Assembly (NCBI GenBank): GCA_965217585.1
Contig: OZ244561.1
Span: forward strand, 320,001 to 384,000
Origin: Candidatus Latescibacterota bacterium
GTDB taxonomy: Bacteria > Latescibacterota > UBA2968 > UBA8231
Direction: 5' to 3'
Length of the DNA stretch: 64,000 nucleotides
Positions 535 through 45,701 of this stretch are shown in pieces. Made by a program: the position numbers and the translations under genes. Under the pieces are notes generated by a model, which was not told the DNA's origin, did not search any database, and saw nothing but the letters and a program-made list of their open reading frames with translations. The stretch's first letter is position 1; the number at the start of each line of letters is the position of its first letter.

Positions 535-642
535 TCAGCCGTGCAGGATGGGATGGCCGTTGCCGGTAAAAAACGCCACATCAATGAGGAAGGAGAGGCC
601 GACGCCGAGGAAGTAGCCTGCGATCAGGCCGATGAAGAAGGG
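535..642 (-). pseudogene. 3'-end remnant of a DUF6785/6784-type membrane protein paralogue
   Basis: PFFIGLIAGYFLGVGLSFLIDVAFFTGNGHPILHG* versus PFFIGLILGHFFGVGISFIVDMIFFPGNGHPILHG* at the end of 1312..3312; fused out of frame to the truncated HEPN gene. Confidence 0.9.
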
Positions 643-845
643 TCTAAATCGTGGGTGCGCGGAATCGGCTGGGCATGGAATACCAGCACGGCTTTGAGGT
701 ACTTTTCGGCCGCCTGCTGACTGTGAAAGCAGATCGTATCCCAAGGTATTTCTTGGGCCGCCAGATTATTCCTGACGTTTAGCAGATCATTTTCAGCCCG
801 GCTGGTCCACTGCCGTACTAGGATTTTTTGCGGAGATTCGCTCAT
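643..845 (-). pseudogene. HEPN-domain protein, 3'-truncated
   Basis: MSESPQKILVRQW...ICFHSQQAAEKYLKA...IPRTHDL is the typical N-terminal half of MNT-associated HEPN proteins; breaks off at about 643. Confidence 0.85.
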
Positions 846-1167
846 ATAAAGTGGTGCCCTCGGCCAATACCTGGGACGCGAATGAAGACGGAGCTTCTTT
901 CCAATAGTCCAGTTCGGCGGGGGTGTACACGACAACATCCAAGGGACAATCAATGTCTTCGAGTAGGCGGCGCACTTCAAGGGCGCGCTCCAACGGGGGC
1001 AAATCCGTCTGCCAGACTATGAGTAAATCCAAATCGCTGTCCCATTGGCTATGACCCGTAGCATGGGAGCCGAATAGAACGATCCGCTCAAAGGGGTGTG
1101 CGCGGACGAGAGTCTCTACGACGAGATCGAGCGTTTGGTTGGTCTTTTTGGTTGTCTCTGTGGTCAT
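793..1167 (-). CDS. Minimal nucleotidyltransferase (MNT) antitoxin-type protein
   Basis: LFGSHATG...SDLDLL motif (GS-x-DxD), later D in DVVVYTP; adjacent to HEPN. Confidence 0.9.
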   Translation of the reverse strand: MTTETTKKTNQTLDLVVETLVRAHPFERIVLFGSHATGHSQWDSDLDLLIVWQTDLPPLERALEVRRLLEDIDCPLDVVVYTPAELDYWKEAPSSFASQVLAEGTTLYERISAKNPSTAVDQPG

Positions 1168-1174
1168 AGTGTAG

Positions 1175-1203
1175 AATCTAAAGAATCAACCCATTAAATC
1201 CAA
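1175..1203 (-). promoter_or_regulatory. Putative sigma70-type promoter for a near-leaderless MNT-HEPN transcript
   Basis: Minus strand TTGGAT-17 bp-TAGATT, then 7 nt to the ATG at 1167; no SD sequence. Confidence 0.4.
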
Positions 1204-1208
1204 AATCC

Positions 1209-1304
1209 TCAGCCGTGCAAGATGGGATGGCCGTTGCCGGGGAAGAACGCTACATCCACGAGCAAGGAGCGCACGGTGACGCCTGTTGCGGGATAGGTTG
1301 ACAA
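1209..1304 (-). pseudogene. Internally deleted DUF6785-type paralogue (31-aa in-frame stub)
   Basis: TTG start, MSTYPATGVTVRSLL|VDVAFFPGNGHPILHG*: family N-terminal motif (G[LV]TxRSL) fused in frame to the family C-terminus; last 40 nt identical to the end of 1312..3312. Confidence 0.85.
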
Positions 1305-1311
1305 CGCGGCC

Positions 1312-3312
1312 TCAGCCGTGCAAGATGGGATGGCCGTTGCCGGGGAAGAAAATCATATCGACGATAAACGAGATCCCCACCCCGAAGAAGTGCCCGAGAA
1401 TCAGGCCGATGAAAAACGGCGCAGCCTTGCGGTATAGCTCAATGCCGCCAAAGCGCATGATCAGACTCTTGGCCGCCCAAGACACAAAGATCGCCGGGGC
1501 TTGGTTGCGCACCATCCAGATCGCGGAGATGGCCAAGCCCACCGGATGCAGGGGCCACCACGGGAAGCGGTACTGCATAAACGTCAAAACCGCCATCGCC
1601 GCCGCGCCGATGCCGAAAAAGCTGAGCTTTTGCACGTGGAAATCGGCCGGAGTTTTGATCTTGCTCAGCGCGTCGTCAAAGGAGCGCACCCCCGCGCCCG
1701 AGGAGACACGGAAAAACCAGGAGTTGAAGTTGGAGGCTCCCTGCTCGTAGGCCATGGCAATGACGTACACAATGGCGGCGATAAAGCCGACTAGTAGAGC
1801 CAGCGCAATGGCCAAGCACAGGCCGCGACGGCTCATGCGCATGGCGTCGTGCAGCCGGGTGGCATGGGCGGCCGACGGCATGAAGATCGACTGCACATCG
1901 CTGAAGAACCCATAACTCATCCCCAGGGCCGCCAAGCCCGTCGGCGAAATCGCACTCGTGCCAAAGGTCATCATGGTCATGGCTTGGCTGACCACGGGCG
2001 TCGTCAGGTAGAAGACGCCAGCCTGCACCACCAAGCGGGTAATGCCCAAGTAGGCAATCAGCACGCCGCCCAAGAAAAACGCCGCCACCGGCATTTCCAT
2101 ACCAGCCTTGTTGAGCCACGCCAGCATGTAGACGACTCCGACCAACAGGCCGACGACTGCGCTGCGATAGGACATCAACTCGCGGCTGTCGTCAACCGGA
2201 TGGGCGGGATTCCACGCCTTGCGGAACACGTCCTTAAGGTGATCGCGCGCCATCCACAACCCCCACAACACCAGCACCACAAAAGCCCCCCAACACTGCC
2301 AAGACGTCGACGGCAAGCCCCACACGAAGTTGTCGGCTTCGGTCACGCCAACGCCAAAGCGGTTAAACAGGCCCTCTTCGAGCAGCAGCAGCAAAAAGAA
2401 AAACCAGATGCTGAAGGTGACGTTGAGGTTGGCGAAATACATGAAGCCGACGACCGGGAAGTAGAAGCGGATGTTGATCGTGGGAAAGCCGTGCGCGATT
2501 TGGATGGGATGGTGCCACTCGATCTTGGGAAAGAAGTGGAAGAAAAAGCCGACGATGTTCCACAAGACGATGCACAGGGGGATCGCCGCCCCCATCCAAA
2601 AGACCTTGTTGCGCAAGACGGCCGGCACGCGCGCAGGGCCATCGGCGTCCGCCACGAGGGCCTGCGGCACCTCCATCAGCGGATAGGCCAACCGCTCGCG
2701 CTCGACCCACTGCTTGCGCAATATGACGACGAGGCAAAAACAGACCGCGTACAAAGTCCAGATAAAGCTCAGCCACCAAAACAGCGGCATGGCCCACGCA
2801 TCGAGCAGCGTGCCCCAAGGCATCGGCTCACCGAGAGGCAGTCCCTCAAAGAACCAAGTCATGGCCAAGCCGTCGTTGCTCGGCAGCAGCCACGCCGGCA
2901 AGTAGGGCAAGACGTACGTGCCCCACTGGTTTTCCGCGGAGGCAAAGTAATAGGGCGTGGTGGGGATCGACAGCACGTAGCCCATCATAAAGATGGGGAT
3001 GCCGGTCGTCACCAAGCCCATGACCACGACCGTGATCATCTCGGCCGGCCGCAAGGCCCAGCCGGGATTGATCGTCTTGAGCAGGATGTTGAGCAGGATG
3101 AGGCAGCAGAACGAGAAGCCGACGGCAATCGGAAAAAACGACCACGTGATCTCGGACGACCCCAAGACCCAGATGGCGTAGGGCGCGCCTAAACACACGA
3201 TGAGGACTTGGATGACGCCGAGCACCAAGGAGCGGAGCGTGAGGCCGCTAGCCGCGCCTTGGCTAGTGCTTGTTTCTCGATATGTAGTGGTCGCAGTCGG
3301 CGACGTCATCAA
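1312..3312 (-). CDS. DUF6785/DUF6784-type polytopic membrane protein, putative transporter
   Basis: 666 aa, many TM helices, motifs QWVERERLAYPL and WWPLHPVG; paralogue of 46890..48776. Confidence 0.8.
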   Translation of the reverse strand: MMTSPTATTTYRETSTSQGAASGLTLRSLVLGVIQVLIVCLGAPYAIWVLGSSEITWSFFPIAVGFSFCCLILLNILLKTINPGWALRPAEMITVVVMGLVTTGIPIFMMGYVLSIPTTPYYFASAENQWGTYVLPYLPAWLLPSNDGLAMTWFFEGLPLGEPMPWGTLLDAWAMPLFWWLSFIWTLYAVCFCLVVILRKQWVERERLAYPLMEVPQALVADADGPARVPAVLRNKVFWMGAAIPLCIVLWNIVGFFFHFFPKIEWHHPIQIAHGFPTINIRFYFPVVGFMYFANLNVTFSIWFFFLLLLLEEGLFNRFGVGVTEADNFVWGLPSTSWQCWGAFVVLVLWGLWMARDHLKDVFRKAWNPAHPVDDSRELMSYRSAVVGLLVGVVYMLAWLNKAGMEMPVAAFFLGGVLIAYLGITRLVVQAGVFYLTTPVVSQAMTMMTFGTSAISPTGLAALGMSYGFFSDVQSIFMPSAAHATRLHDAMRMSRRGLCLAIALALLVGFIAAIVYVIAMAYEQGASNFNSWFFRVSSGAGVRSFDDALSKIKTPADFHVQKLSFFGIGAAAMAVLTFMQYRFPWWPLHPVGLAISAIWMVRNQAPAIFVSWAAKSLIMRFGGIELYRKAAPFFIGLILGHFFGVGISFIVDMIFFPGNGHPILHG

Positions 3313-8272: not shown

Positions 8273-8326
8273 CAGCAAGACATTGAGCAAAGGCGGGAAG
8301 AATTTCAGCGGAGGCGTCAGCAATGA
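8273..8326 (+). pseudogene. Short 3' stub of a gene formerly coupled to DUF2442 (possibly DUF4160 family)
   Basis: QQDIEQRREEFQRRRQQ* with TGA overlapping the ATG at 8323; DUF4160 genes usually precede DUF2442. Confidence 0.4.
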
Positions 8327-8643
8327 AAAAACACTATCAAATAACCGAACTGCACTTTGACGGAGATTGCATGATTCTGACTATCGATGGTCTAGAAAAG
8401 ACCTTTCAAGTAAGTGAAATATCCCCTGCCCTGCAAAATGCGTCTGAAGAAGAAAAAAACCTCTTTGAAATCTCTCCTTCGGGCTACGGTATCCACTGGC
8501 CACTACTCGACGAGAATCTGTCCATTGACGACTTGCTCGGCGTTGTTCACAGGCCGAAAAAGAAAAAACTCCTCCTGCTACAAAACCACGCTATTCTTGA
8601 CGCAGATAGAAGCCGACAATATGAAGGAGAATCGTCATGCTAG
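8323..8643 (+). CDS. DUF2442 family protein (copy 1, with unrelated C-terminal extension)
   Basis: SPSGYGIHWPLLDENLSIDDLL motif; near-identical to 16856..17116 over about 80 aa. Confidence 0.85.
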   Translation: MKKHYQITELHFDGDCMILTIDGLEKTFQVSEISPALQNASEEEKNLFEISPSGYGIHWPLLDENLSIDDLLGVVHRPKKKKLLLLQNHAILDADRSRQYEGESSC

Positions 8644-8790: not shown

Positions 8791-9968
8791 GGCTTTGGTG
8801 CATGAATCGTCGGTTTTTCTTGTGTTCATTGGTTGAATAAAGACAGGTTCCTTAGTAGTTTGGGCAGGACCTTTTTGGCAAAAAATCCATGCTTTCTCGT
8901 CCAAGGAACCTGTCATGCCCAAGGTATCGTCTTCTTCCTCCCCGGTCAAGTTTGCTCGCGGTCGCCCGAAGGTCGTATACCGGGTGCGTAATGGGTCTGC
9001 CTACGAGGCCGGCCTTAAACAGCGGGGGAGTCTGACGGTGTGGTTTAGCCCCCAAGCGGTTCAAGCTTGGTATTATCAAGGGCCCTCCCAGCGGGGAGCG
9101 CAATACACCTTTTCGGATGGAGCCATCCAAACGGCGTTGACGCTACGGATGCTCTATCATTTGCCGCTGCGCCAAACCGAGGGCTTTGTCGGCTCCATCT
9201 TGGCCTTGATGGGACTGGATCTACAGGGGCCCGATCACACGACCTGGTCTCGCCGTCAGGCGGATTTGGCGGTGGATCTACCGCCCCAGCGTACCGACCA
9301 ACCCCTGCACTTGGTGGTTGACTCGACGGGGCTGAAAGTGTATGGGGAAGGCGAGTGGAAGGTGCGTCAGCACGGTTGGACGAAGCGGCGCGCATGGCGC
9401 AAATTGCACCTAGGGGTCAACGAGGCTACCGGCGAAATCGTCGCACAGACCTTGACCACCAACCGCCGAGATGATGCCTCGCAGGTGGAGCCGTTGCTGC
9501 AGCAAGTCGAAGCGTCCGTGGTCGCGTTGGGTGGCGATGGAGCCTATGATAAGCGCAAGGTCTTCGACGCGTTGGCCGCGCCCGATCAAGGCCGGCCTAT
9601 TCGCCCGATCATTCCGCCGCGCAAGGACGCCAAAATCGAGCAACATGGCAACACTCACGCCGAGCCGTTACCCCGCGATGAGACGATTCGAGCGATCCGC
9701 CAACGGGGCCGTCGAACCTGGAAAAACGACAGCGGCTATCATCGCCGCTCGATCGCCGAAACGCAGATAGGCCGCTATAAACAGATACTCGGCGATACCT
9801 TACGCGCCCGAACCTTACCCCACCAACAGACCGAAACACGGTTGGGTTGTGCGGTACTTAACCGACTGCTCGCGTTGGCCAAACCCGAGTCCTATCCGAT
9901 CACAAAAAAAGCGTAAACCAAAAAACCAAGAGGCCAACACAGCCGACCTGGTTTCATGCAACAAAGCC
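8791..9968 (+). mobile_element. IS5-family (IS903-like) insertion sequence
   Basis: IRs ggctttggtgcatgaa / reverse complement ggctttgttgcatgaa (15/16); 8-bp target duplication CCTCGAAG at 8783..8790 and 9969..9976. Confidence 0.95.
8915..9916 (+). CDS. IS5-family DDE transposase
   Basis: QRGSLTVW, LPLRQTEGF, VDSTGLKVYGEGEW, WRKLHL, DGAYD, YHRRSIAET motifs. Confidence 0.95.
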   Translation: MPKVSSSSSPVKFARGRPKVVYRVRNGSAYEAGLKQRGSLTVWFSPQAVQAWYYQGPSQRGAQYTFSDGAIQTALTLRMLYHLPLRQTEGFVGSILALMGLDLQGPDHTTWSRRQADLAVDLPPQRTDQPLHLVVDSTGLKVYGEGEWKVRQHGWTKRRAWRKLHLGVNEATGEIVAQTLTTNRRDDASQVEPLLQQVEASVVALGGDGAYDKRKVFDALAAPDQGRPIRPIIPPRKDAKIEQHGNTHAEPLPRDETIRAIRQRGRRTWKNDSGYHRRSIAETQIGRYKQILGDTLRARTLPHQQTETRLGCAVLNRLLALAKPESYPITKKA

Positions 9969-11353: not shown

Positions 11354-11487
11354 CTGAACCTTGGCCATTCTGCGCCGATAAATCATTGGACGCATCGACT
11401 CGTGGAATGACAATGGCCGCTCAGTGTGTAAGATCGACGCGAGAAGCCGTGTTCCCGCGAACAATTCAGAGCCAAAGCTCCTCTTCC

Positions 11488-14400
11488 ATGAGCAACCAAA
11501 CCAACGAACAAGCCTTTGAAGCCCAAGTCGAGGCGACGCTCCTCGGGCCGGGCGGCTGGCATTGCGGCACCACCGCCGCGTGGGATGTCGAGCGCGCCCT
11601 CTTCCCTACTCAGGTCTGTACTTTCCTCGCCGAAACCCAGCCGACGCTGTGGGAACAGATGCGTGCCCTACACGGCGCTGGGCTTGAAGACCTGCTGATA
11701 GACGCGCTAGTCAAAGAACTCGACATCAAAGGCGCGCTGCACGTGCTGCGCCACGGCTTCAAGTTCTACGGCAAGACCTTCCGGCTAGCGTATTTCAAGC
11801 CTGCCCACGCGCTCAACGACGAAGTGCTGGCACTGTACGCGCAAAACAAGCTAACGGTCACGCGGCAAGTTCCCTGCCATCCCAATAAGCGCGATACAGT
11901 CGATCTGTTGTTCGCACTAAACGGGCTGCCCGTGGCGACCTGCGAACTGAAAAATCCCGGCACCGGCCAAAGCTGGCGGCAAGCCGTGCGGCAATACCAG
12001 GAAGACCGCGACCCACGCGCGCCGCTATTCAGTTTCAAGACGCGGGCATTAGTGCATTTCGCCGCCGATCCGGACGAAGTACACATGAGCACGCGCCTTA
12101 ACGGTGAAGACACGCGCTTCCTCCCCTTCAACCGAGGCAGCCACCCAGGCGAAGTACAATGCGGCGCAGGCAACCCGCAGCACACCTCGGGCTACCGCAC
12201 CGGCTATTTCTGGCAAGAAGTGCTGGAGCGCGACAGTTTCCTCGACATCCTCGGCCACTTCATGTTCGTCGAGAAGAAAGAAGAAAAGAGCGAAGACGAC
12301 CAAGGCAGTGCTCGGCGCATCGTCCACGAGACCATGATTTTCCCCCGCTATCACCAGCTCGACTCCGTACGGCAGCTAGTCGCCGCAGCGCGAGCAGACG
12401 GGGCCGGCCAGAATTATTTGGTGCAGCATTCGGCGGGCAGCGGCAAGACCAACAGTATCTCTTGGCTTTCACACCGCCTCGCCAGCTTGCACGACGACGA
12501 GGACCGCAAAGTCTTCGACTGCGTCGTCGTCATCACCGACCGCCGCGTGTTAGACCAGCAACTCCAAGACGCAATTTACCAGATCGAACACGCCCAAGGC
12601 GTAGTCAAGGCGATTGACCAAGACAGCCAGCAACTCGCCAGCGCCCTAATCGACGGCACCAAAATCGTCGTCACCACGCTCCAGAAATTCCCGTTCGTAT
12701 TGCGCGGGTTACTGCGCACCGCTGGGGCCGAGTCGCAGGAGGCCGCCACCGCCGAGGAGCGAGCGCAGGCTAAGGCTTGGGAAGCGGAAATCGGCAAGCG
12801 CCGGTATGCGGTGATTGTAGATGAGGCGCACTCCAGCCAGACCGGAGAGAGCGCACGGGAGCTCAAGGAGATTTTGGGCACAGGCACGGATGCCGAAGGC
12901 GAGCAGGACTGGGAAGACCGCCTAAACCAAGTGATGGCTTCGAGAGGCCGTCAGCCGAACTTGTCGTTTTTCGCCTTCACAGCCACCCCCAAAGGCAAGA
13001 CGCTAGAGCTGTTTGGCCGCCCCGGTGCCCGAGGTGTACCCGAAGCGTTCCACCTGTACAGCATGAGGCAGGCCATTGAGGAAGGCTTCATCCTCGACGT
13101 GCTCTCGAACTACACGACCTACAACGTCTATTACCGGCTGCTCAAAAACGCGGAGGACGACCCGAACCTGCCAAAGAAGAAGGCGGCCCGCGCTCTAGCG
13201 AAGTTCGCAAGCTTTCACCCTCATAACATCGAGCAGAAGACCGAGGTAATCGTCGAGCACTTCCGCAATAAGGTGCGGCATCGGCTAGATGGTCGCGCCA
13301 AGGCCATGGTAGTCACTGCATCGCGGCTACACGCCGTACGCTACAAACTCTCCTTCGAGCGCTACATAGAGGAGAAAGGCTATGCGGACATCCGTCCGCT
13401 CGTCGCCTTCAGCGGCACCGTACGCGACCCCGATACCGGCCTTGAATACACGGAGCCGGGCATGAACGTGGATGTCGTCACCGGCAAGCCCATCAGCGAA
13501 GCGGCGCTGCCCGACCGCTTCGACTCACCCTCCTACCAAGTGCTGCTAGTTGCGAACAAGTACCAGACGGGCTTTGATCAGCCGCGCCTATGCGCGATGT
13601 ACGTGGACAAGCGGCTCGACGGGGTACAGGCCGTGCAGACGCTCTCGCGGCTCAACCGCACGGCTCCGGGTAAGGACGCTCCGTTCGTGCTCGATTTCGT
13701 CAACAATGCCGAAGACATCTTGAATGCCTTCAAGCCGTATTACGACAAGACCGAGGTAGTAGAGGCGTCTGACCCTTCGAGGCTAGAGGCCCTAAAACAC
13801 GAACTCGACCAAGCACAGGTCTACTACTGGAGTGAGGTCGAGAAGTTCGCCGGGGTGTTCTACAAAGCCCCCGAGGACCAAAGGCCTAGCGATCACGCCG
13901 ACATGCAAAAGTGCCTCCAGCCAGCCATAACTCGCTTCACCGCAATCGAGCAAGACGACGCCCGCGACCAGTTCCGCGACAAACTCTCCGGCTACGTAGG
14001 ACTATACGCTTACTTGAGTCAGATCGTCCCCTACGGCGACCCAGACCAAGAAATGCTTTACAGCTATGGGCACTTTCTACTACCGCACCTGCCTCTCGAC
14101 CGCGACGACGCAGTTGTCAAGCTAGGCAGCGAAGTCGCTCTCCAGTACTACCGACTGGAGCGCGTTTCCTCGGGGCCGATACATGTGGCGGAAGGCGATC
14201 CTCAGTACGTCAGACCCCCGACCGAGGTCGGCACTGGCCGGGCACAGGACCCCAAGGCTCCCCTGTCGGAGATCATCGAGGTGCTGAACGAACGCTTCGG
14301 GACGCAGTTTGATGAAGTGGATCGGCTCTTTTTTCAGCAGATCAAGGAAAAAGCCTGCAACGACGAAACCGTAGTAGAGACGGCGCGCGCCAATCCGCGT

Positions 14401-14589
14401 GACCGGTTCGAGTTGGGAATCAAGAGCCGCCTCGACGAATTAATGATCGAGCGCATGAGCGAGAACGACCAGATCGCGGAGCGCTACCTGTCGGACGAAA
14501 CGTTTCGGAGTTTGGCCCTGCCCATCCTCGCGCAGGCCATATTCGAGGACCTACAGACGAAAGATGCGGATACACCCGCGCCGAAATAA
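11488..14589 (+). CDS. hsdR: Type I restriction endonuclease subunit R
   Basis: Nuclease motif DLLFALNGLPVATCELKN, Walker A HSAGSGKT, DEAH box, FTATP, YQTGFDQP, QTLSRLNR; start reassigned to MSNQTNEQAFE. Confidence 0.95.
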   Translation: MSNQTNEQAFEAQVEATLLGPGGWHCGTTAAWDVERALFPTQVCTFLAETQPTLWEQMRALHGAGLEDLLIDALVKELDIKGALHVLRHGFKFYGKTFRLAYFKPAHALNDEVLALYAQNKLTVTRQVPCHPNKRDTVDLLFALNGLPVATCELKNPGTGQSWRQAVRQYQEDRDPRAPLFSFKTRALVHFAADPDEVHMSTRLNGEDTRFLPFNRGSHPGEVQCGAGNPQHTSGYRTGYFWQEVLERDSFLDILGHFMFVEKKEEKSEDDQGSARRIVHETMIFPRYHQLDSVRQLVAAARADGAGQNYLVQHSAGSGKTNSISWLSHRLASLHDDEDRKVFDCVVVITDRRVLDQQLQDAIYQIEHAQGVVKAIDQDSQQLASALIDGTKIVVTTLQKFPFVLRGLLRTAGAESQEAATAEERAQAKAWEAEIGKRRYAVIVDEAHSSQTGESARELKEILGTGTDAEGEQDWEDRLNQVMASRGRQPNLSFFAFTATPKGKTLELFGRPGARGVPEAFHLYSMRQAIEEGFILDVLSNYTTYNVYYRLLKNAEDDPNLPKKKAARALAKFASFHPHNIEQKTEVIVEHFRNKVRHRLDGRAKAMVVTASRLHAVRYKLSFERYIEEKGYADIRPLVAFSGTVRDPDTGLEYTEPGMNVDVVTGKPISEAALPDRFDSPSYQVLLVANKYQTGFDQPRLCAMYVDKRLDGVQAVQTLSRLNRTAPGKDAPFVLDFVNNAEDILNAFKPYYDKTEVVEASDPSRLEALKHELDQAQVYYWSEVEKFAGVFYKAPEDQRPSDHADMQKCLQPAITRFTAIEQDDARDQFRDKLSGYVGLYAYLSQIVPYGDPDQEMLYSYGHFLLPHLPLDRDDAVVKLGSEVALQYYRLERVSSGPIHVAEGDPQYVRPPTEVGTGRAQDPKAPLSEIIEVLNERFGTQFDEVDRLFFQQIKEKACNDETVVETARANPRDRFELGIKSRLDELMIERMSENDQIAERYLSDETFRSLALPILAQAIFEDLQTKDADTPAPK

Positions 14590-31444: not shown

Positions 31445-31483
31445 GCGTAGTGGTGCGCCAGAATTTCCCATTGTGAGGAGAAC

Positions 31484-33118
31484 ATGATCGAAGGACACCA
31501 AGTACTAGCCGACGGCGGCGCGGTGGCCGCCCAACAGCCAGCGGCGGCGCGCATTGGCGCGCAGATATTGTCCCAAGGCGGCAACGCCATGGATGCGGCC
31601 GCAGCCACCAGTTTGGCCTGCTGCATGTTGGCACCCCAATCCAACGGCATCGGCGGCTACATGTCAGCGGCGGTCGTTTTGGAAGGTTCCACCGGCCGCG
31701 TCTGGTCGCTCGACGCCAATGCCGTAGCCCCGACCGCCGCCCACGAGTACATGTACGATATTCTACCAGCCCGCCGCGACAACAAGGACCTCAACGAAAA
31801 GGAATACGCCTGTAGCGTGCGCGACGATGCCAACGTGTATGGCCCCCAGTCCGTAGCCGTCCCCGGCCAAATGGCTGGCATGGGCTTTTTGCACGAGCAC
31901 TGGGGACAGTTGCCTTGGGCCGCGATTGTCGCTCCGGCCCAAGGGCTGCTCGCCGACGGCTTCCCCTACGGCCCGGCCCTAGCCAGTACCATTCGCAACC
32001 AAGCAGCCATCCTGCGCCGCTTCCCCGCGACGTTTAGCCACCTCGCGCCGCAAGGCGAGTTGCCCAGCCCCGACGACATTTGGCATCGCCCCGATATGGA
32101 GCGCACATTGGAACGTTTGGCCCAAGCTGGCTGGCGCGACTTTTACGGCGGGGAATTGGGCCGCACCATCGGCGACTATGTCCAAGCCAGCGACGGTGCT
32201 CTCACCCGCCGGGATATGGCCGACTTTGCGCCGCGCCTGACCGAGCCGTACCAAATCACCTACCGCGACGTGCCGGTATACGGGCCGATTTTGCCCAACG
32301 GCTGCCTCTCCGCCCTCCAGATTCTGCACATGCTGGAATGCCTGCCCGCGGTGCCCGACGACCAGGCCCTGTACTGGCACCAGCTAGCCGAGGTCGTCAA
32401 ACAAGCCTGGCGCGACCGCCTGCGCTACGTCGGCGATCCCGATTTCGTCGATGTACCGGTGGAGCGCTTGCTGAGCAAGGACTATGCAGCCGGTCGCGTC
32501 GAGGCCCTGCGGCAATTCCCCGAGCAGGTCAATCAGCAGGTGTACGAAGTCTCGGGTCCGGCCGTCGCCGAAACCCTGCACGTATCAGCCGCAGATGCCG
32601 CGGGCAATCTCGTCGGCATCACCATCACCCAAGGCGGGGCCTTTGGCTCCTGTCTCACTGTGCCGGGCACGGGCATTATTTTAGGCCACGGCATGTGCCG
32701 TTTGGACCCCCGCCCTGGCCGGGCCAATTCCGTGGCCGCGCACAAGCGTCCGCTCAACAACGTGGTCCCCATGATCTTACGCCTGCCCCAGCGCGACGTG
32801 GCTATCGGCCTACCCGGAGGTCGCCGCATCATCAGCGTCGGTGCCCAACTGGCACAGCGCATTATCGACTTCAACGCCACCGCCTTGGGAGCAGCCACAG
32901 CCCCCCGGCTCAACGCCGAAGCCCAAGAACCCCTCGAACTGAAGCGCGGCATTGACCCGGCGATTGTGCAAACCCTAAAAGAAATGGGCCACCGGGTGCA
33001 GGTAAGAGAAGGGGTGGCCGGCGGTGCTCACGGTGCGGAGGTACTCAAAAGCGAGGGCAAAGTACGCGCCGGGGGCAATGGATGGGCCGCGGGCGTGGAT
33101 TTTGTAGAGGGCCGGTGA
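31484..33118 (+). CDS. Gamma-glutamyltransferase family protein
   Basis: GGNAMDAA, VAVPG, GDPDF, ETLHVSAAD (Thr nucleophile), KRPLNN, PGGRRI. Confidence 0.9.
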   Translation: MIEGHQVLADGGAVAAQQPAAARIGAQILSQGGNAMDAAAATSLACCMLAPQSNGIGGYMSAAVVLEGSTGRVWSLDANAVAPTAAHEYMYDILPARRDNKDLNEKEYACSVRDDANVYGPQSVAVPGQMAGMGFLHEHWGQLPWAAIVAPAQGLLADGFPYGPALASTIRNQAAILRRFPATFSHLAPQGELPSPDDIWHRPDMERTLERLAQAGWRDFYGGELGRTIGDYVQASDGALTRRDMADFAPRLTEPYQITYRDVPVYGPILPNGCLSALQILHMLECLPAVPDDQALYWHQLAEVVKQAWRDRLRYVGDPDFVDVPVERLLSKDYAAGRVEALRQFPEQVNQQVYEVSGPAVAETLHVSAADAAGNLVGITITQGGAFGSCLTVPGTGIILGHGMCRLDPRPGRANSVAAHKRPLNNVVPMILRLPQRDVAIGLPGGRRIISVGAQLAQRIIDFNATALGAATAPRLNAEAQEPLELKRGIDPAIVQTLKEMGHRVQVREGVAGGAHGAEVLKSEGKVRAGGNGWAAGVDFVEGR

Positions 33119-33198
33119 CGACGTCCTAGAGTAGTGCGTCCAGAAATTCGCCCGCGTGTAGCGCCCAGCGGCGCATCTCAATACAAAGGAGAGCAGCC

Positions 33199-34407
33199 AT
33201 GGCAATATCCCGCGCAACGATTGCCGAACGCATCGGCAAGGTGCAGCAGTTCATAGAAGAAGAGGACCTCGGGGCGCTGTTCGTCTACTCGCCGGCGATG
33301 GAGCACATGTGGGGGCAGACAGGCCACGTCGCCTACCTGTCGGGGTGGGCGGACTGCGACCGCATCGTCGACTCGGCCGTCGTCGTCCCGCGAGTGGGTG
33401 AGGCGGCGCTGATGTTCGCCGGCCTGCCCTACATGCGCGACCTCGCCCTCGAGGTGTCGCCCCTCGACGACATGCGCCTAGTCACCGCGGTCGATCCCAA
33501 CGCCGTGGCGGTCGACGCGAGCAAGCCGGGAGCCCCGGGGAGCTTTGCCTCCGAAACCCTGGCGATCCTCGACGAGAGCGGCTTCGGAGACAGACAGGTC
33601 GGCGTCGTCGGCATCGACAACATGCCGCAGCCGCTTCACCAGACCCTGGTCCGGGGTCTCGGCGCAAAGTTCGTCGCGCCCCGGGACATCGTCGCCGAGC
33701 TGCGCTACGCCAAGACCCCCGACGAGGTCGAGATGATGCGCAAGGCCGCGGCGCTCAGCGACCTCGGCTTTGAGACGCTCGTGCAGACCGCCCGCCCCGG
33801 TATGCGCGGCATCGAGGTCGTCGCCGAAATGGAGCGCGTCATCCGCCGGCAGGGGGCCGATGTCGCCAAGTACTGGATCGCCTCCGGCCCGGCACCGGAC
33901 TGGTCGGACGTCAAGCTCGAGGTCAAGCCCCACATGCGAGTGCTGGAAGCCGGCGACCTGATGGCCGCCTGTTCCTACGTCGTCTACAAAGGGTACTGGT
34001 GCCACGGCCAGCGCACCGGCTCCCTCGGCGAGCCGTGCGCCGAGCTCGAACGCATCTGCGCGCTGACGCGGGAGGCCCAGGACGCCGGCCTCGCGGTGAT
34101 GAAGCCGGGCGCTCCCGTGGGCAGCGTCGCCAAGGCGGTGCGGGAGAAGGCTGCCGAGGGCGGCTGGGAGATCCAGGGGGGCCGCATCGGCCACGGCATG
34201 GGGCTGGACTACAGCGAGAGCCCGGTACTGAACGAAAGCAACGAGACCCCACTCCAGGCCGGCACCACCGCGGTCGTCCACTCGACCTTCTCGCTGCCCA
34301 GGTCCGGGAAGATGTTCGTCCCCCTCGGCGACGTCTGCCACGTGACCGAAAGCGGCCCCGAGTTCCTGATGTCGTTTCAGCGCGAGCCGTTCGTCACCGG
34401 CGGGTAA
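33199..34407 (+). CDS. M24/creatinase-fold hydrolase
   Basis: LRYAKTPDEVEMMRKAA, KGYW...RT, GHGMGLD; canonical acidic metal ligands appear replaced. Confidence 0.8.
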   Translation: MAISRATIAERIGKVQQFIEEEDLGALFVYSPAMEHMWGQTGHVAYLSGWADCDRIVDSAVVVPRVGEAALMFAGLPYMRDLALEVSPLDDMRLVTAVDPNAVAVDASKPGAPGSFASETLAILDESGFGDRQVGVVGIDNMPQPLHQTLVRGLGAKFVAPRDIVAELRYAKTPDEVEMMRKAAALSDLGFETLVQTARPGMRGIEVVAEMERVIRRQGADVAKYWIASGPAPDWSDVKLEVKPHMRVLEAGDLMAACSYVVYKGYWCHGQRTGSLGEPCAELERICALTREAQDAGLAVMKPGAPVGSVAKAVREKAAEGGWEIQGGRIGHGMGLDYSESPVLNESNETPLQAGTTAVVHSTFSLPRSGKMFVPLGDVCHVTESGPEFLMSFQREPFVTGG

Positions 34408-34424
34408 GAGGGAGCGAGTTCTTA

Positions 34425-36996: not shown

Positions 36997-37026
36997 GAGG
37001 ATTTGGGGATTATACCGACGGGGTGA
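36997..37026 (+). pseudogene. Diverged copy of the 3' end of the epimerase gene 30416..31444
   Basis: EDLGIIPTG* versus EDVGIIPTGVRFG* (31403..31429); 21/27 nt, 5 of 6 mismatches at third codon positions. Confidence 0.7.
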
Positions 37027-37065
37027 TTCGAGAAAGCGTAGGAAAAATCGACAAAAAGCTAACGG

Positions 37066-42920: not shown

Positions 42921-43752
42921 GATCTTCCCCTTTCTGGCACAAAGCCGTAAAAAAGCGCACATCAATGCGCGCCAAGTCGATGACGCTTTCCACCGGCTCG
43001 CCGCTGTACTCGCTGTGGAAGCTGACCGGGCCGGTAAAATCCAGCCGCTTCAAGGTCGCGATCACCGAAGGCCAATCGACAAAGCCCTGCCCCATCCGCA
43101 CGACGCCACTGCCGGGTGCACCCTGCTGGGTAATGCTCAAAGACCGCTGGCGGGCCAGATCCTTAAACGCGACCAGACACAAGTGCGAACGCACGATGTC
43201 GAGGGCCATAGCAATCGGCTCGCCGCATACTGACAAGTGCCCGGGATCGGCGAAAACGCCCACGTATTGCGGGTCGCAGTCCTTGACGATATTCATGGCG
43301 GCGCAGGCATTGAGGCCCATGGACGCGCCCGAATGATTGTGGATGGCGGTTTTGACGCCGTATTTTTCCGACAGCACTTGGAATCCCTGCATAAAGCCGC
43401 GCACCTCGTCTAATTGCGTCCAGTAGGACACATCCGGCTCCCAGTGCCAGTAGCCGAGCTTGACGTGGCCCACGCCGGCTGCACCCAAGGCCGCGTAATA
43501 CCTTTCCGCATAGTCGAGGTCCGGGCGGTTGAAGTCGCCCGGAGCCGTGACCAAGGGGATGCAAAGGCCAGCGTCGGCAAAGCGACGCGCAGCCTCCGGT
43601 AGGGCCGTGGCCACATTGTCGGGGTTGACCGGATAGCCGTCGCGCACACACAAGTCGGCTCCCTGCACGCCCATGGCCTGCAAGGCGTCGATGATTTGCG
43701 GGACATCGAGGCCCTCTAAGTGTTTAGTAAATGCGATATACGTCAGATCCAC
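42913..43752 (-). CDS. Sugar phosphate isomerase/epimerase (xylose isomerase-like TIM barrel)
   Basis: HNHSG, DPGH, AFKD, G.GFVDW, FHSEY; GTG 43752 after AAGGAG. Confidence 0.88.
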   Translation of the reverse strand: MDLTYIAFTKHLEGLDVPQIIDALQAMGVQGADLCVRDGYPVNPDNVATALPEAARRFADAGLCIPLVTAPGDFNRPDLDYAERYYAALGAAGVGHVKLGYWHWEPDVSYWTQLDEVRGFMQGFQVLSEKYGVKTAIHNHSGASMGLNACAAMNIVKDCDPQYVGVFADPGHLSVCGEPIAMALDIVRSHLCLVAFKDLARQRSLSITQQGAPGSGVVRMGQGFVDWPSVIATLKRLDFTGPVSFHSEYSGEPVESVIDLARIDVRFFTALCQKGEDHA

Positions 43753-43850
43753 GATGTGTGCTCCTTTCTCTATGATTTGTTTGACAAAGCTCGGTAAGGG
43801 TATCAAAATATCGGCTACATGCCAACGAACTAAATGGAGCAAGTCGAATT

Positions 43851-44783
43851 ATGGAAGCAATCAAGATGGAACCCAGCCCGGCAATTGAGGTCCCCAAGCC
43901 GCTCACCCCCGCCCAAGTGCAGTTCTTTATCGACAACGGCTATCTCGTCGTGCCGGACCTGATGGAAGCAGCCGAGCTCGCCGAACTCAAACGCGACCTC
44001 GTGGACGTGGCGCGCGGCCGCTACGAGTGCGACAACATCGAGCCGGTCGATCCCGCCCTCAGCGACCAAGCGGTGTTGGAAAGCATCCTCTGCATCCACC
44101 AGCCGCACTACGTCAGTCCAGTCATCGAAAGGTACGTCCGCCACCCCAAGATCTGTGGAGCCCTGAGCCAGATCACCGCCGCGCACCTGCCCTTTTGGGA
44201 CGGCAGCGTCAAGTGCATGCAGTCCATGTACTTCGTCAAGCCGCCCAATTTCCAGGGTCAGGCTTGGCACCAAGACGAGATCTACATCCCCACGCGGGAT
44301 CGCTCGCTGATCGGCGCGTGGATCGCCGTGGACGACGCCACCGTCGAAAACGGCTGCCTATACGTCATTCCGGGGTCGCACCGGCCCGGATACCTCTACC
44401 CGCAGCGGCCCCACGAAAACTCGGACGAGTTCGACTTCGCGCCCGAGAGCTACGGCTTTGACGAGAGCGTCGAGATCCCGGTTGAAGTGGAGGCCGGTGC
44501 CCTCGTGTTCTTCAACGGCTATCTCCTCCATCGCTCGTACAAAAACCGCGGCGACACCTATCGCCGCGTCTTGGTCAACCACTACTGCAACTCTTGGAGC
44601 CTGTTGCCCTGGAGCCTTGAAGAGGGCGAGTCACCGGCCAAGGCCGATCGGCGCAACATCGTGCCTGTGGCCGGCATCGACCCCTATGCCTGGAAGGGCT
44701 ATAAAACGCCAGCCAAGTCCGTGGGGCTGCGGCACTGCAAGGCCATCGACGAGGTCCACGCCGCCCGCGAGGAGCACGCATAA
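43851..44783 (+). CDS. Phytanoyl-CoA dioxygenase (PhyH) family Fe/2OG enzyme
   Basis: WHQD, WIAVDDATVENGCL..IPGSH, LLHRS..N...RR. Confidence 0.92.
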   Translation: MEAIKMEPSPAIEVPKPLTPAQVQFFIDNGYLVVPDLMEAAELAELKRDLVDVARGRYECDNIEPVDPALSDQAVLESILCIHQPHYVSPVIERYVRHPKICGALSQITAAHLPFWDGSVKCMQSMYFVKPPNFQGQAWHQDEIYIPTRDRSLIGAWIAVDDATVENGCLYVIPGSHRPGYLYPQRPHENSDEFDFAPESYGFDESVEIPVEVEAGALVFFNGYLLHRSYKNRGDTYRRVLVNHYCNSWSLLPWSLEEGESPAKADRRNIVPVAGIDPYAWKGYKTPAKSVGLRHCKAIDEVHAAREEHA

Positions 44784-44786
44784 AAA

Positions 44787-45560
44787 ATGGTTAATCAATC
44801 AGCATTTTGCTGGCCGGAAGGCGTTCAGGGAGCAGTATCTGTCAGCTACGACGACGCGCTACCCTGTCACTACGAGGATGTCGCACCCGCCTGGGAAGCC
44901 CATGGATTGAGGGTGACGTTCTACACGAATATAATCAGCCTGATGAACAATCCCGATGCTTGGCGCGATGTCGGCGTGAAGGGCCACGAACTCGGCAATC
45001 ACAGCATCTTCCACCCGTGCCGCAAGCAACAGGGCAACGACTGGCTGGCCGACGAGTACGACCTGCGCAGGTACACGCCCCGCAGGTGGACAGATGAAAT
45101 GCGCACCGCGAACGCCATCCTGTCGTCGCTCGACGGCAAAAAGGAGCGTTCCTTCGGCAACACCTGCTGCAACACCGATCTCGGCGAGGGGGAGACCCTT
45201 CACAGCCTCGAACCGCTGATCGAGGAACTGTTCGTCGCCGGCCGCGGCCCCTTCAACAACCGGGTCGTCGATGCAGAGACGCTCAACTTCAACTCCCTCG
45301 GGCATTTCAGCGGCGACGGCCGCGATTTCGACCGCCTGCGGCTGGAAATCGACGACGCCGTAGCCGCAGGCGGCTGGATCATCTACATGATCCACGGAGT
45401 CGGCGAAGGCACGCACGGTTTGTACATCGATCCCGAGGTGCATCAGAGTCTGGTCGACTACCTCGGAGAGCGGCAGGATTCCATCTGGACGGCACCGGTG
45501 GGGACGGTGGCGCGGTACCTGCGCGACAGTACCGGAACAGGCCCGACCGGACCCCGGTGA
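44787..45560 (+). CDS. Polysaccharide deacetylase (NodB-like) family protein
   Basis: SYDDAL, GHELGNHS..HP, WIIYMIHGV. Confidence 0.85.
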   Translation: MVNQSAFCWPEGVQGAVSVSYDDALPCHYEDVAPAWEAHGLRVTFYTNIISLMNNPDAWRDVGVKGHELGNHSIFHPCRKQQGNDWLADEYDLRRYTPRRWTDEMRTANAILSSLDGKKERSFGNTCCNTDLGEGETLHSLEPLIEELFVAGRGPFNNRVVDAETLNFNSLGHFSGDGRDFDRLRLEIDDAVAAGGWIIYMIHGVGEGTHGLYIDPEVHQSLVDYLGERQDSIWTAPVGTVARYLRDSTGTGPTGPR

Positions 45561-45564
45561 TCGC

Positions 45565-45630
45565 ATGAAAAAGATCAGATTGGCATTAGTAGGTAACGAG
45601 GTCCGCGCCGCCCGCGAGGAGCACGCGTGA
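45565..45630 (+). pseudogene. Chimeric 21-aa stub: Gfo/Idh/MocA start fused to a PhyH 3' end
   Basis: MKKIRLALVG|NEVRAAREEHA*; first half resembles MDKIRLALVG (62506), second half is 30/31 nt identical to 44749..44779. Confidence 0.85.
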
Positions 45631-45701
45631 AAATCGGCTGCTCTACTTGGGGGATGGCGAAGCTGTCCGGCATCCTGATCAGCATCCGACTAGGAGCGTA
45701 G
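45627..45701 (+). pseudogene. 5' stub of a probable sugar isomerase-type gene (24-aa mini-ORF)
   Basis: GAGGAG then GTG, MKIGCSTWGMAKL...; stops 1 nt before the next CDS. Confidence 0.45.

Follow-up and report, generated by a model that had tools for sequence, protein, structure and literature searches.

How do genes unrelated to their neighbours come to lie between the end of a chromosomal gene and a second, slightly different copy of that end, with no integrase nearby? The question is raised by a window of 64,000 nucleotides (positions 320,001 to 384,000 of contig OZ244561.1, assembly GCA_965217585.1; all coordinates below are those of the window) from a Candidatus Latescibacterota genome. 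A sequence-only reading of the window had pointed to six such sites. It proposed that genes are acquired from relatives, one at a time, by recombination anchored in a shared gene, and that this builds integron-like arrays. The genome of the window is referred to as G000 and its sister genome as G001; the other G-numbers denote relatives. The host is described as an uncultured sponge-type bacterium, and its genome is gene-dense, with a coding share of about 88% by a crude gene call.

Results

Repeated gene termini in the window

All six repeats were found where they had been reported. Self-BLAST of the window gave significance to three of them: DUF6785 (1206-1269 vs 532-595, 56/64; 1310-1350 and 1207-1247, identical over 41/41), hsdR (11474-11545 vs 17099-17170, 65/72, longer than the 53/58 originally noted) and PhyH (44749-44779 vs 45596-45626, 30/31, extending to 35/38). 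The CBM9 (15/16), permease (16/18) and epimerase (21/27) repeats are not significant alone, since they are absent from the self-BLAST list at E≤1; relatives or a shuffle test back them. A further repeat, missed earlier, adjoins that of hsdR and joins two DUF2442 genes (8323-8568 vs 16856-17101, 246 nt, 90%). The layout departs from the earlier description at two sites: there is no cargo at 1209/1312, and the hsdR gene itself lies inside its repeats. The features are collected in Table 1.

Table 1. Features of the variable sites in the window.
Feature	Position	Strand	Basis or remark
Stub C, displaced readable 3' end of a B-type DUF6785 paralogue	535..648	-	~114 nt including stop codon
HEPN + nucleotidyltransferase (MNT) toxin-antitoxin-type pair, cargo between stub C and B remnant	624..1167	-	Pfam HEPN, Polbeta/NTP_transf_2
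Remnant of tandem DUF6785 paralogue B	1207..1311	-	48 nt of 3' end joined to ~55 nt of 5' end
Intact DUF6785/DUF6784 gene A	1312..3312	-	Pfam; last 41 nt equal end of B remnant (self-BLAST)
DUF2442 gene copy A	8323..8643	+	Pfam; homology to copy B ends at 8568
IS4/IS5-type insertion sequence, ordinary transposon insertion	8791..9968	+	DDE_Tnp_1
Type I restriction R-subunit gene (hsdR), ATG at 11488, 14-nt leader	11474..14589	+	Pfam HSDR_N, ResIII, SWI2_SNF2
AAA_21/AAA_15 ATPase gene and 89-codon ORF, within repeat pair	14773..16847	+	Pfam
DUF2442 copy B, then directly 58-nt hsdR start stub with in-frame TAA	16856..17170	+	Sequence, self-BLAST
Uma2-family endonuclease cassette	17171..17807	-	Pfam Uma2; identical two ends in two contexts across genus
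CBM9-like gene 3' end remnant, 16 nt, travelling with Uma2 cassette	17808..17823	-	15/16 to 18402-18417
Frameshifted AhpC/peroxiredoxin-like gene	17825..18401	-	Two ORFs match AhpC-TSA profile positions 4-35 and 48-123
CBM9-like gene, intact terminus 18402-18417	18402..19587	-	Weak CBM9_1 match
Left copy of 18-nt duplicated target; permease-1 stop codon and old permease-2 start	22279..22296	+	Empty site in relatives
WD40-repeat protein gene (22317-24476) and new ATGATGTCTATTCCG start for permease-2, inserted cargo	22297..24503	+	Pfam WD40
Right copy of duplicated target, now permease-2 codons 6-11	24504..24521	+	16/18 to left copy
AAA_22 gene, inserted without duplication	25342..26952	+	Missing in G011, G010, G012, G009
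3' end of epimerase gene (gene 30416-31444)	31403..31447	+	Pfam
M24 peptidase gene, inserted in last codon of gamma-glutamyltranspeptidase gene	33097..34418	+	Missing in 9/9 relatives holding junction
Old stub like epimerase 3' end (EDLGIIPTG... GCGTAG)	36997..37045	+	Directly after MR_MLE gene, at variable-segment edge
PhyH last 11 codons, stop and 3 nt; functional repeat copy with deacetylase-linked tail	44749..44786	+	Sequence comparison
Polysaccharide deacetylase gene, cargo	44787..45560	+	Pfam
Mini-ORF of scars: Gfo/Idh/MocA first 10 codons fused in frame to PhyH last 11 codons and stop	45558..45633	+	PhyH stub is 45596-45633
Start stub (VKIGCSTWGM...) of a further gene	45628..45702	+	Same stub directly after PhyH in G001, G014

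Genome-wide distribution of short direct repeats

The enrichment that the sequence-only reading had called for was found. A crude gene caller combined with an ungapped seed-and-extend search, applied to G000 only, gave 202 isolated short direct repeats spaced 100-10,000 nt apart, compared with 5, 10, 3 and 7 pairs when equal windows were offset by 0.5-3 Mb as a control, and with 33 inverted repeats at this spacing. A gapped-extension filter left 132 of the 202 and 16 of the 25 control pairs, and the 70 pairs that extend under gapped alignment may be diverged paralogues. Counting genes of 150 aa or more, 63/202 repeats touch a gene terminus (5.8% for a random 40-mer), and pairs combining a terminus with intergenic DNA were observed 30 times vs about 2 expected. 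The geometry of gene, cargo and stub characterizes 34 of the 48 one-terminus pairs, with repeat lengths of 24-192 nt showing no peak or mode and with 5' ends affected in 13/34. Their cargo is diverse, comprising oxidoreductases, peptidases, toxin-antitoxin pairs, a restriction-modification gene, Fic, ankyrin and WD40 genes.

The site-specific character of the repeats was likewise borne out: an all-against-all comparison of the 34 repeats and 68 cargo ends returned only 11-13-mers as shared motifs. No integrase or resolvase family match occurs among the 43 window ORFs (Pfam). The 7.3 Mb genome holds 5 tyrosine and 0 serine recombinases, all of them outside the window, and a comparison of coordinates showed that each of the 34 pairs is more than 10 kb from any recombinase gene.

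Insertions with empty sites in relatives

The empty-site prediction was confirmed at the permease slot, where five of the seven relatives holding the junction have a single copy of the target and no WD40 gene; in each of them (G001, G011, G010, G012, G009) the site ATGCGAATTAA(G/A)ACCCAAGAAAA occurs once, and the other two carry different cargo. Among the genomes compared, only G000 has the WD40 gene at this slot, its closest outside relative being 45% identical. Both junctions are bridged by contigs from four runs of three other studies, two of these runs showing 11/415 and 17/664 differences from the window, so the suspicion of an assembly artefact can be dismissed here. The flanks of the insert are 96.0% identical between G000 and G001, on both sides alike. 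The HEPN-MNT pair is missing in G001 and present at its site in G011, G013, G002, G012 and G009. The WD40 gene and the HEPN-MNT pair were genuinely inserted; the corresponding sites in sister genomes are empty.

Two further sites are also empty in relatives. A DUF5615/DUF433 pair is flanked by a 68/71 repeat that exists as one copy in 5/5 relatives, and a DAO gene by a 46/46 repeat whose site is filled in G000, G001 and G005 and single-copy in G019, G012, G006, G003 and G021. At least 14 genomes of the genus carry the DAO gene at another locus, which in G000 is empty after a wider, imprecise deletion; the gene came to its present site from a different locus within the lineage. As read off the junction sequences, the unit travelled with about 22 nt past the stop codon and about 40 nt before the start, and no clear microhomology was seen at its junctions. 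Identity between repeat copies tells little about age, the DAO stub matching at 46/46 in G000 vs 41/46 in G001.

The window also contains joints that duplicated nothing. The AAA_22 insert replaces about 18 nt, including the start codon of the next gene, and supplies a new ATG. The M24 insertion cost about 7 nt of target, and the gamma-glutamyltranspeptidase gene gained a new 7-codon tail.

Deletions, duplicated starts and old stubs

At the DUF6785 locus, stub C matches the intact B end at 97/115 positions for G001 and likewise for G002, with its reading frame intact. The 1209 stub is the deletion remnant of the tandem paralogue B, because no DNA separates it from 1312; an internal deletion of about 1.9 kb took place at a CCACGAG microhomology. 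Full-length B, 81% identical to A, stands at the site in five relatives (G001, G011, G013, G002, G012) and is wholly lost in G009. Tandem paralogue deletion, which had been anticipated for some sites, is thus upheld here.

The hsdR site belongs to a variable defence islet in which the DUF2442-hsdR start is duplicated, and the first 58 nt of hsdR are the template of its stub. The ATPase block is found beside different neighbours in G013 and G002; in the same two genomes positions 8790 and 9969 are contiguous, and G001 holds many copies of the IS4/IS5-type element. G010 has a single DUF2442 gene and lacks hsdR. The absence of 8326-17147 from G001 is a deletion, because all that remains of the hsdR stub in this genome is its final 24 nt.

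The AhpC-like gene is what separates the CBM9 gene from its stub. The 17808 stub is a decayed CBM9 stub; the G001 version is longer, with 80 nt or more of the CBM9 3' end, and has a deletion inside it. In G011, G013 and G022 the Uma2 cassette is flanked by the AhpC fragment and CBM9; in G000 and G001 it stands ahead of the fragment, and G002 and G010 lack it.

The sequence at 36997 is an old epimerase stub. A gapped local alignment of 48 columns scores 18 vs a shuffle maximum of 14 (0/2000 shuffles reach 18), and 5/6 mismatches of the 21/27 repeat fall at third positions, as read off the sequences. The stub is kept, while decaying, in five of nine relatives (G001, G011, G013, G002, G012) and is missing in G022, G010, G007 and G009.

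At PhyH, each of the two gene ends bears the tail of a different gene order. In G013, G002 and G010 PhyH is followed by the Gfo gene, which in G011 comes after the deacetylase; the VKIGCSTWGM start stub belongs to a gene that may resemble a sugar-isomerase-type TIM barrel. The deacetylase is missing in G001; in G011 and G022, copies 90-91% identical to it have PhyH or a PhyH stub as neighbour. PhyH is 98.2% identical between G000 and G001 up to the repeat. The site is empty in the sister genome, and the gene may have been lost by G001 rather than gained by G000, because its identity to the G011 and G022 copies is about the same as that of its flanks and the single PhyH end of G001 looks as if a crossover between the two G000 repeats had produced it.

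Discussion

The scars are real: relatives have empty sites, the repeats vary in length, recombinases are absent and there is a genome-wide excess. Different species also have stubs at the same slots. The origins of the six sites differ, and include insertion, paralogue deletion, a duplicated start and decayed or old stubs. We consider, with a probability of about 0.6, that recombinase-independent illegitimate recombination at gene boundaries left the gene-terminus stubs behind, and that the six sites are a mix of event types.

The mechanism originally favoured, homology-facilitated illegitimate recombination, would anchor relatives' DNA by long homology in a shared gene and join the far end by microhomology upstream of the anchor's end, displacing the recipient's gene end as a stub. 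The third-position pattern noted earlier for the epimerase and DUF6785 copies was confirmed, and several pairs do look like diverged functional alleles. Stub C differs from B-type alleles mostly at synonymous sites (11-14 of 17-20 mismatches at third codon positions), and the 90% likeness of the DUF2442 and hsdR copies is close to the between-species distance. In G013 two permease-1 ends match at 238/261, the functional one having a variant tail in common with G002, and the PhyH end, deacetylase and Gfo order of G011 looks donor-like for the two-tailed PhyH site. DprA (2 matches) and ComEC (1 match), competence genes that had been suggested for checking, are present, but they do not discriminate because 10-11 of 14 control genomes have them too. 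Such recombination fits some sites and not the cleanest recent insertions: at a resolution of 400 nt the DNA beside recent cargo showed no donor tract, a G000-specific T found in 0/5 empty sites is present in both copies of the WD40 repeat, and the flanks of the old and new DAO sites have no visible similarity. Together with the deletions at the 1209 stub and in G001 and the duplication-free M24 and AAA_22 joints, this makes it unlikely as the single mechanism. That all stubs are instead what deletion left of tandem paralogues or tandem duplications, no gene having been gained, describes the 1209 stub exactly, agrees with the loss of 8326-17147 in G001 and could draw on the 70 pairs that extend when gapped. 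It is nevertheless quite improbable as a general account, as the cargo is unrelated to the gene with the duplicated end, the WD40 gene and the DUF5615/DUF433 pair are missing from intact single-copy targets in all compared relatives, and the DAO gene has its home locus elsewhere in most of the genus.

A dedicated, unrecognised trans-acting machinery that relocates genes through long staggered target cuts, such as an end-independent integrase or reverse-transcription-based copying, would suit the tight single-gene DAO unit, the identical Uma2 cassette ends in two contexts and the single operon slot occupied by a WD40 gene in G000 and by ankyrin genes in G013. The odds against it appear slightly longer still, given cargo ends with no common sequence or, at the WD40 and DAO junctions, visible poly-A or other tail, duplication lengths with no mode, and duplication-free insertions side by side with the others. 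Islands in tRNA or protein-gene 3' ends have the geometry seen here, which would suit decayed elements whose integrase set islands with a replacement end (attL/attR) into gene 3' ends and was later lost. This is very improbable for cargo that can measure just 0.7-2.2 kb and holds no trace of an integrase, for repeats that vary 8-fold in length and touch 5' ends so often, and for a genome whose few recombinases are distant from the pairs. The integron comparison is a loose analogy, as the recombinase and attC that are features of integrons are both missing and the order is limited to 2-3 stacked events. Chance matches or strain-chimera assembly errors are largely refuted. The genome appears to be metagenome-assembled and 3/6 repeats are too short to be significant alone, but the shifted controls are 20-60 times lower, independently assembled relatives have the same scars and the WD40 junctions recur in other studies.

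In the recombinase-independent reading, segments of one to a few genes would enter the chromosome via two non-homologous or microhomologous joints; they would stem from another locus, from congeners whose genes are ordered differently or from distant sources. Joints overlapping on the target would duplicate a stretch of it (18 to ~190 nt; 261 nt in a relative), and joints leaving a gap would lose or replace a few bases. Neighbouring genes presumably abut or overlap, and the joints would lie within a few codons of gene termini because only events that leave both neighbours readable would survive. One copy of the terminus would be kept by the gene and the other would decay as a stub, the insert often bringing an in-frame new start or tail. 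The same ground may later undergo deletions, by microhomology or between repeats, gene conversion between copies and more insertions into the slot. Candidate routes include taken-up single strands annealing at the replication fork, one-sided homologous recombination with an illegitimate joint, single crossover of a circle and replicative template switching. The scar-forming process is an already known kind of sloppy recombination, and it is well documented in this genome.

Materials and methods

The genome under study (G000) is a single contig of 7.32 Mb with 59.5% G+C, and the sequencing runs that have words in common with the window are mostly sponge metagenomes by label. At least 30 genomes of the same genus, many of them complete, were available for comparison, and the site-by-site reading used the syntenic regions of ten relatives (G-numbers below). 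The nearest of these, G001, is 93–96% identical to G000 over syntenic blocks and the others 88–93%. Gene content was determined with Pfam profiles for 43 window ORFs. In the genome-wide test, 13-mer seeds were extended without gaps, and repeat pairs with a score (matches minus twice the mismatches) of at least 20 and a length of at most 200 nt were kept only if their flanks were less than 45% identical; arrays were removed. The resulting counts are based on crude gene calls and refer to G000 alone. A region with dense short direct-repeat pairs (2054 and 229 in two 5-kb bins), which probably represents a spaced array, either a large CRISPR or one of another kind, was excluded from them.

Results

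Gene-end repeats in the window and in the genome

The gene-end scars are real and recombinase-free. All six repeats described in the sequence-only reading were confirmed, and its statement that no integrase is present also held, since none of the 43 window ORFs matched an integrase or resolvase family in Pfam; two IS transposases were found. Self-BLAST of the window returned five significant pairs, four of them at the DUF6785 (two), hsdR and PhyH sites; the fifth, not described in the sequence-only reading, consists of two DUF2442 genes. The matches at the CBM9-like (15/16), permease (16/18) and epimerase (21/27) genes are too short to be significant by themselves; near pairs with such scores exceed shifted controls less than 3-fold.

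Features of the gene-end sites and their surroundings (window coordinates unless a contig or locus is named)
Feature	Position	Second copy	Identity or length
Hairpin and conserved segment	339-534		
DUF6785 end, second stub	1206-1269	532-595	56/64
DUF6785 end, remnant of paralogue B	1310-1350	1207-1247	41/41
Whole remnant of paralogue B	1207-1311		
Defence islet	5350-17800		
IS transposase	6766-7838		
IS transposase	8915-9916		
DUF2442 genes	8323-8568	16856-17101	246 nt, 90%
hsdR start	11474-11545	17099-17170	65/72
Uma2 endonuclease cassette	17171-17807		
WD40 gene	22297-24503 (whole insert)		
AAA_22 gene	25304-26903 (interval of the identity comparison)		
Palindromes before DUF4143/AAA_14 gene	34419-34480		
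Copy of dispersed repeat	35713-35820		108 nt
PhyH 3' end	44749-44779	45596-45626	30/31
DAO site, repeated gene end	G000:C1:161023-161068	G000:C1:162263-162308	46/46
Ankyrin-repeat ORFs (locus in G013)	L030:13758-15192		
Dense direct-repeat cluster	G000:C1 ~7,145,000-7,155,000		

The genome-wide enrichment that the sequence-only reading called for was seen, with 202 direct repeats spaced 100–10,000 nt apart against 5, 10, 3 and 7 at shifts of 0.5, 1, 2 and 3 Mb. Inverted repeats at near spacing numbered 33, against 8 and 7 in shifted controls. After a gapped-extension filter, 132 of the 202 pairs and 16 of 25 control pairs were left. Repeats lay at the terminus of a gene of at least 150 aa in 63 of the 202 cases (random 40-mers, 5.8%), and a terminus was paired with intergenic DNA in 30, about 2 being expected. 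One copy alone lay on a terminus in 48 pairs; the gene was outside the pair in 34 (21 3' ends and 13 5' ends) and inside it in 14. The lengths ranged from 24 to 192 nt with no mode, the cargo was diverse, and sequence comparison revealed no motif common to the repeats or to the 68 cargo ends.

Two other kinds of repeat were observed in the window. One is a stretch of 108 nt that G001 lacks, a member of a dispersed repeat family of ~116–120 nt; G000 contains another 22 copies, up to 99% identical, and many occur in relatives, which gives the repeat the look of a miniature mobile element. Ahead of the DUF4143/AAA_14 ATPase gene stand GGGTGAnnnTCACCC-type palindromes around a promoter-like TTGACG...TATAT, and at this place relatives without the gene (G013, G022, G012) keep 3–5 tandem palindrome units.

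The permease junction

The start of permease-2 (ATGCGAATTAA...) overlaps the stop of permease-1, and the 18-nt target is single in G001, G011, G010, G012 and G009. G000 has it twice, around a WD40 gene, and the insert supplies a new in-frame ATGATGTCTATTCCG start. A T common to both G000 target copies occurs in none of the five empty sites, and either flank shares 96.0% identity with G001. The slot carries other cargo in G013 and G002. The order in G013 is a variant permease-1 end, a 356-codon ORF, a second permease-1 end of 261 nt (238/261) with the first 14 nt of permease-2, two ankyrin-repeat ORFs and then permease-2. This slot has therefore been struck at least three times. One ABC-permease junction holds a WD40 gene in one species and two ankyrin ORFs in another, both coding for eukaryote-like repeat proteins.

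The WD40 gene matches genes of five relatives at 64–79% identity, and its best match among species-representative genomes is 45% identical; no second copy was found in G000. Retro-copying was considered for the WD40 and DAO oxidoreductase cargo and rejected, as there is no tail and there are no transcript-like ends.

The DUF6785, hsdR and CBM9 sites

In G001, G011, G013, G002 and G012 the intact DUF6785 gene (A) is directly followed by a full-length paralogue (B), 81% identical to A. In G000, B has shrunk to a remnant in which a common CCACGAG connects the final 48 nt of the gene directly with the first ~55 nt, and in G009 B is wholly gone, with one copy of the 41-nt end left. The G000 remnant is the result of a plain microhomology deletion. 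The second stub, at 535, retains ~114 nt from the end of a B-type gene, its frame still open, and agrees with the intact B end of G001, and likewise with that of G002, at 97 of 115 positions. A HEPN-MNT pair sits between this stub and B, and G001 has B without the pair and without the stub. As had been claimed for DUF6785, most mismatches between stub and B alleles (11–14 of 17–20) fall at third codon positions. Here the cargo thus lies between two gene ends whose divergence took place while they were functional. Between the upstream gene and the stub, a hairpin that looks perfect (TTGTAAACTGATGATGGTATCATCAATTTACAAG) was observed together with a short conserved segment; both occur in G011, G013, G002, G012 and G022 and are absent from G001.

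At the hsdR site the repeat unit comprises DUF2442 and the first 58 nt of hsdR. It is unbroken in copy B, and copy A is split by 2.9 kb containing an IS, an unknown ORF and a nucleotidyltransferase gene. The DUF2442/hsdR copies are 90% alike, which is about the between-species distance. Positions 8790 and 9969 adjoin in G013 and G002, so the IS at 8791-9968 is an ordinary insertion, separate from the gene-end scars. The region varies among relatives: G010 has one DUF2442 alone, G013 an ATPase without hsdR, and G002 the 3' third of hsdR. The "empty" state of G001 is a deletion, because the final 24 nt of the hsdR stub are still there as all that remains of it. The interval from the transpeptidase gene to the CBM9 gene behaves as a defence islet whose content differs in every relative compared. 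Its genes encode AAA_15/AAA_21 ATPases, a nucleotidyltransferase, DUF2442, Uma2 and an orphan type I R subunit, near which neither an M nor an S gene was seen.

The Uma2 cassette has identical ends (AGAAAATCTCG... to ...CCACCTCCGCC) in two contexts across the genus, lying between an AhpC fragment and CBM9 in G011, G013 and G022; in G000 and G001 it precedes the AhpC fragment, and G002 and G010 lack it. These tight borders hint that the Uma2 gene may move as a unit. Behind the cassette, at least 80 nt of the CBM9 3' end are found in G001 and 16 nt are left in G000, which shows that the 16-nt match is a real, decayed stub. The block between the CBM9 stub and the CBM9 gene is a broken AhpC gene.

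The epimerase and PhyH sites

The epimerase stub gives a 48-column alignment ending in GCGTAG with a score of 18, reached by none of 2000 shuffles. It lies at the edge of a variable segment and is conserved yet decaying in five of nine relatives; since no relative has an empty site, the stub is old. The PhyH stub of G000 comprises the last 11 PhyH codons and has directly in front of it, in the same frame, the first 10 codons of a Gfo/Idh/MocA gene. In G001 and G014, PhyH is directly followed by the sequence that comes after the stub in G000, and the PhyH end of G001 reads like a crossover product of the two G000 copies. The Gfo gene follows PhyH in G013, G002 and G010; in G011 it follows the deacetylase gene, which itself comes after a PhyH stub of 60 nt. 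Among the ten loci compared, at least five different sequences follow the PhyH end. The deacetylase is 90–91% identical to the G011 and G022 copies, a divergence equal to that of the flanks.

Joints without duplication and further sites in the genome

The M24 gene entered the last codon of the transpeptidase gene with a loss of ~7 nt of target, giving the transpeptidase a new tail, and is absent from all nine relatives that have the junction. The AAA_22 gene replaced ~18 nt, including the start of the next gene, and brings a new ATG. These two joints indicate that duplication is not the only outcome. Within the AAA_22 gene, identity to G001 swings from 86.6% to 96.8% in adjacent 400-nt windows, a mosaic that suggests internal recombination tracts.

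Elsewhere in G000, the DAO gene lies between identical copies of a gene end. G001 and G005 also carry the gene at this site, next to a decayed stub (41/46 in G001, locus L069), and five genomes have the site empty. At least 14 genomes of the genus have the DAO gene at another locus, which is empty in G000 by a deletion wider than the moved segment. The insertion is older than the G000/G001 split, and the copies may have been kept identical in G000 by gene conversion between them. A DUF5615/DUF433 toxin-antitoxin pair, absent from five of five relatives, is flanked by 68/71 repeats whose three mismatches are clustered at the cargo-side edge of the gene-proximal copy; elsewhere only the DUF433 half of the insert matches, in G013 and G002 at 93–94%. 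For the pairs at loci L064 and L061 the cargo is present in most or all relatives, hence no direction can be read.

Discussion

A strain-chimera assembly artefact, which the sequence-only reading had named as a refutation, was discarded for the WD40 junctions, as these are bridged by contigs of four runs from three studies. Two of the bridging runs deviate from the window at 11/415 and 17/664 letters, and one run may be the source sample. Among the joints listed, which exclude 125 others, none connects 22295 to 24504, the empty allele, in the same communities; this carries no weight for or against such an allele. Deletion within tandem paralogues, allowed by the same reading for some sites, accounts for the 1209 stub (the B remnant) only, where five relatives have full-length B, and no full-length paralogue was found in relatives at the WD40, toxin-antitoxin and DAO sites. 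Transposition by a DDE or other element would leave target duplications of fixed length and element-specific terminal repeats, and here the duplications span 24–192 nt and the cargo has no common ends. With regard to site-specific recombination, the whole genome contains five tyrosine recombinases (Phage_integrase) and no serine recombinase. None of the five is in the window or within 10 kb of the 34 pairs, so no IntI stands next to the arrays, and sequence comparison of the 68 cargo ends gave no common sequence, which speaks against attC-type imperfect inverted repeats. An integrase-borne island in a gene 3' end is likewise disfavoured, the cargo ORFs scanned containing no recombinase. Capture by non-homologous end joining finds no support in a whole-genome search for Ku, which gave no match in this single contig (94.6% complete by marker genes). 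Integration of the Cas1 or casposon type was set aside, given the variable duplication length.

The best explanation would be illegitimate recombination of a generic kind, with selection retaining those events that leave the neighbours intact. Some events may have brought in DNA from lineages with another gene order, by a process like homology-facilitated illegitimate recombination (HFIR) or by a circle and a single crossover; others would be relocations or insertions without an anchor, resembling double illegitimate recombination, and the remaining ones deletions. The HFIR anchor put forward in the sequence-only reading stood in part. A donor-allele tract is missing at the WD40 and PhyH sites, where the flanks are 96.0–98.2% identical to G001 up to the repeat, but the allele-like divergence of the copies at the 535 stub, DUF2442/hsdR and the G013 permease-1 is compatible with it. 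Microhomology, judged by eye, amounts to 0–2 nt at the Gfo::PhyH and DAO joints, and the 7-nt CCACGAG was seen at a deletion joint only. The competence genes gave one ComEC match and two DprA matches, also obtained in 10 and 11 of 14 control genomes, respectively.

The usual laboratory outcome of HFIR and double illegitimate recombination is deletion of the target, not its duplication. Both are described from natural transformation (de Vries and Wackernagel, 2002; Prudhomme et al., 2002; Meier and Wackernagel, 2003; Hülter and Wackernagel, 2008, as cited in PMC5361080, PMC2884548 and PMC12359135), the double form by Hülter and Wackernagel (2008, as cited in PMC12359135). As presented in these citing papers, they resemble the present scars in that foreign DNA is joined without an integrase, at points where homology is absent or limited to a microhomology; other features in common are an optional homologous flank, rarity and lack of sequence specificity. 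However, they are laboratory events in competent model bacteria, whereas natural scars of an uncultured lineage are seen here, and unlike in HFIR, the cleanest of these have no homologous anchor.

By analogy, and as far as the cited passages extend, the closest natural counterparts would be the displacement arrays of Rhs, CDI and T6SS effector-immunity loci (PMC5361080) and small variable segments (PMC2884548). In C-terminal displacement (Jackson et al., 2009, PMC2935791; Kirchberger et al., 2017, PMC5361080), as in the present case, an incoming module pushes out the resident gene end, the old end is kept downstream as an orphan with a piece of conserved gene of variable length, and arrays arise from repeated events with no known integrase. 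Both HFIR and circle-plus-single-crossover models are proposed in the cited parts of these papers, the circle with a single crossover for Rhs tips (PMC2935791). The targets described there are polymorphic toxin genes with long conserved cores as homology, whereas here ordinary metabolic, transport and defence genes are affected, 5' ends are also struck, and the duplicated pieces are mostly shorter than 100 nt. Touzain et al. (2010, PMC2884548), in the sections concerned, attribute small variable segments and microdiversity in E. coli, S. aureus and S. pyogenes to illegitimate recombination, with direct repeats flanking 10–18% of small indels and HFIR proposed for dimorphic loci. In that account too, most small indels of close genomes have no link to mobile elements; its repeats, however, are mostly below 30 bp and read as deletion substrates, while here many exceed that length and enclose entire inserted genes, the direction being clear for several of them. 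A eukaryotic parallel comes from Arabidopsis, where single non-transposon genes that change locus are associated with flanking repeats (Woodhouse et al., 2010, PMC2869330). With integrons the scars share the single addition of promoterless genes at a recurrent slot and the pushing outward of older material; unlike in integrons, there is no IntI, attC, attI or common slot sequence, and the slots are gene termini throughout the genome.

The gene-end scars are no new kind of system. We consider it unlikely that recombinase-free slotting of single genes at gene termini is the main route of gene gain and relocation in sponge-type Latescibacterota, a genome-wide, sequence-independent counterpart of the integron with a rate far above that of other bacteria. 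Such a route would create long, variable target duplications, perhaps by single-strand annealing or replication-fork template switching, and would also cover the WD40 and ankyrin genes, both eukaryote-like, that entered one transporter-operon slot in two species.

The addition of single genes to tight bacterial operons without mobile elements is usually inferred rather than seen. The genus offers many complete genomes ~5–10% apart, in which sites occur both filled and empty, events are stacked and stubs are decaying; in this material the spectrum of natural illegitimate joints (duplication versus deletion, length, microhomology) is measurable and comparable with laboratory HFIR and double illegitimate recombination. 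The finding also provides an explanation for the frequent gene-end stubs in intergenic DNA and a caution for annotators, who may wrongly read such stubs as att sites or small genes. It likewise shows the slotting of host-interaction (WD40, ankyrin) and defence genes into expressed operons.
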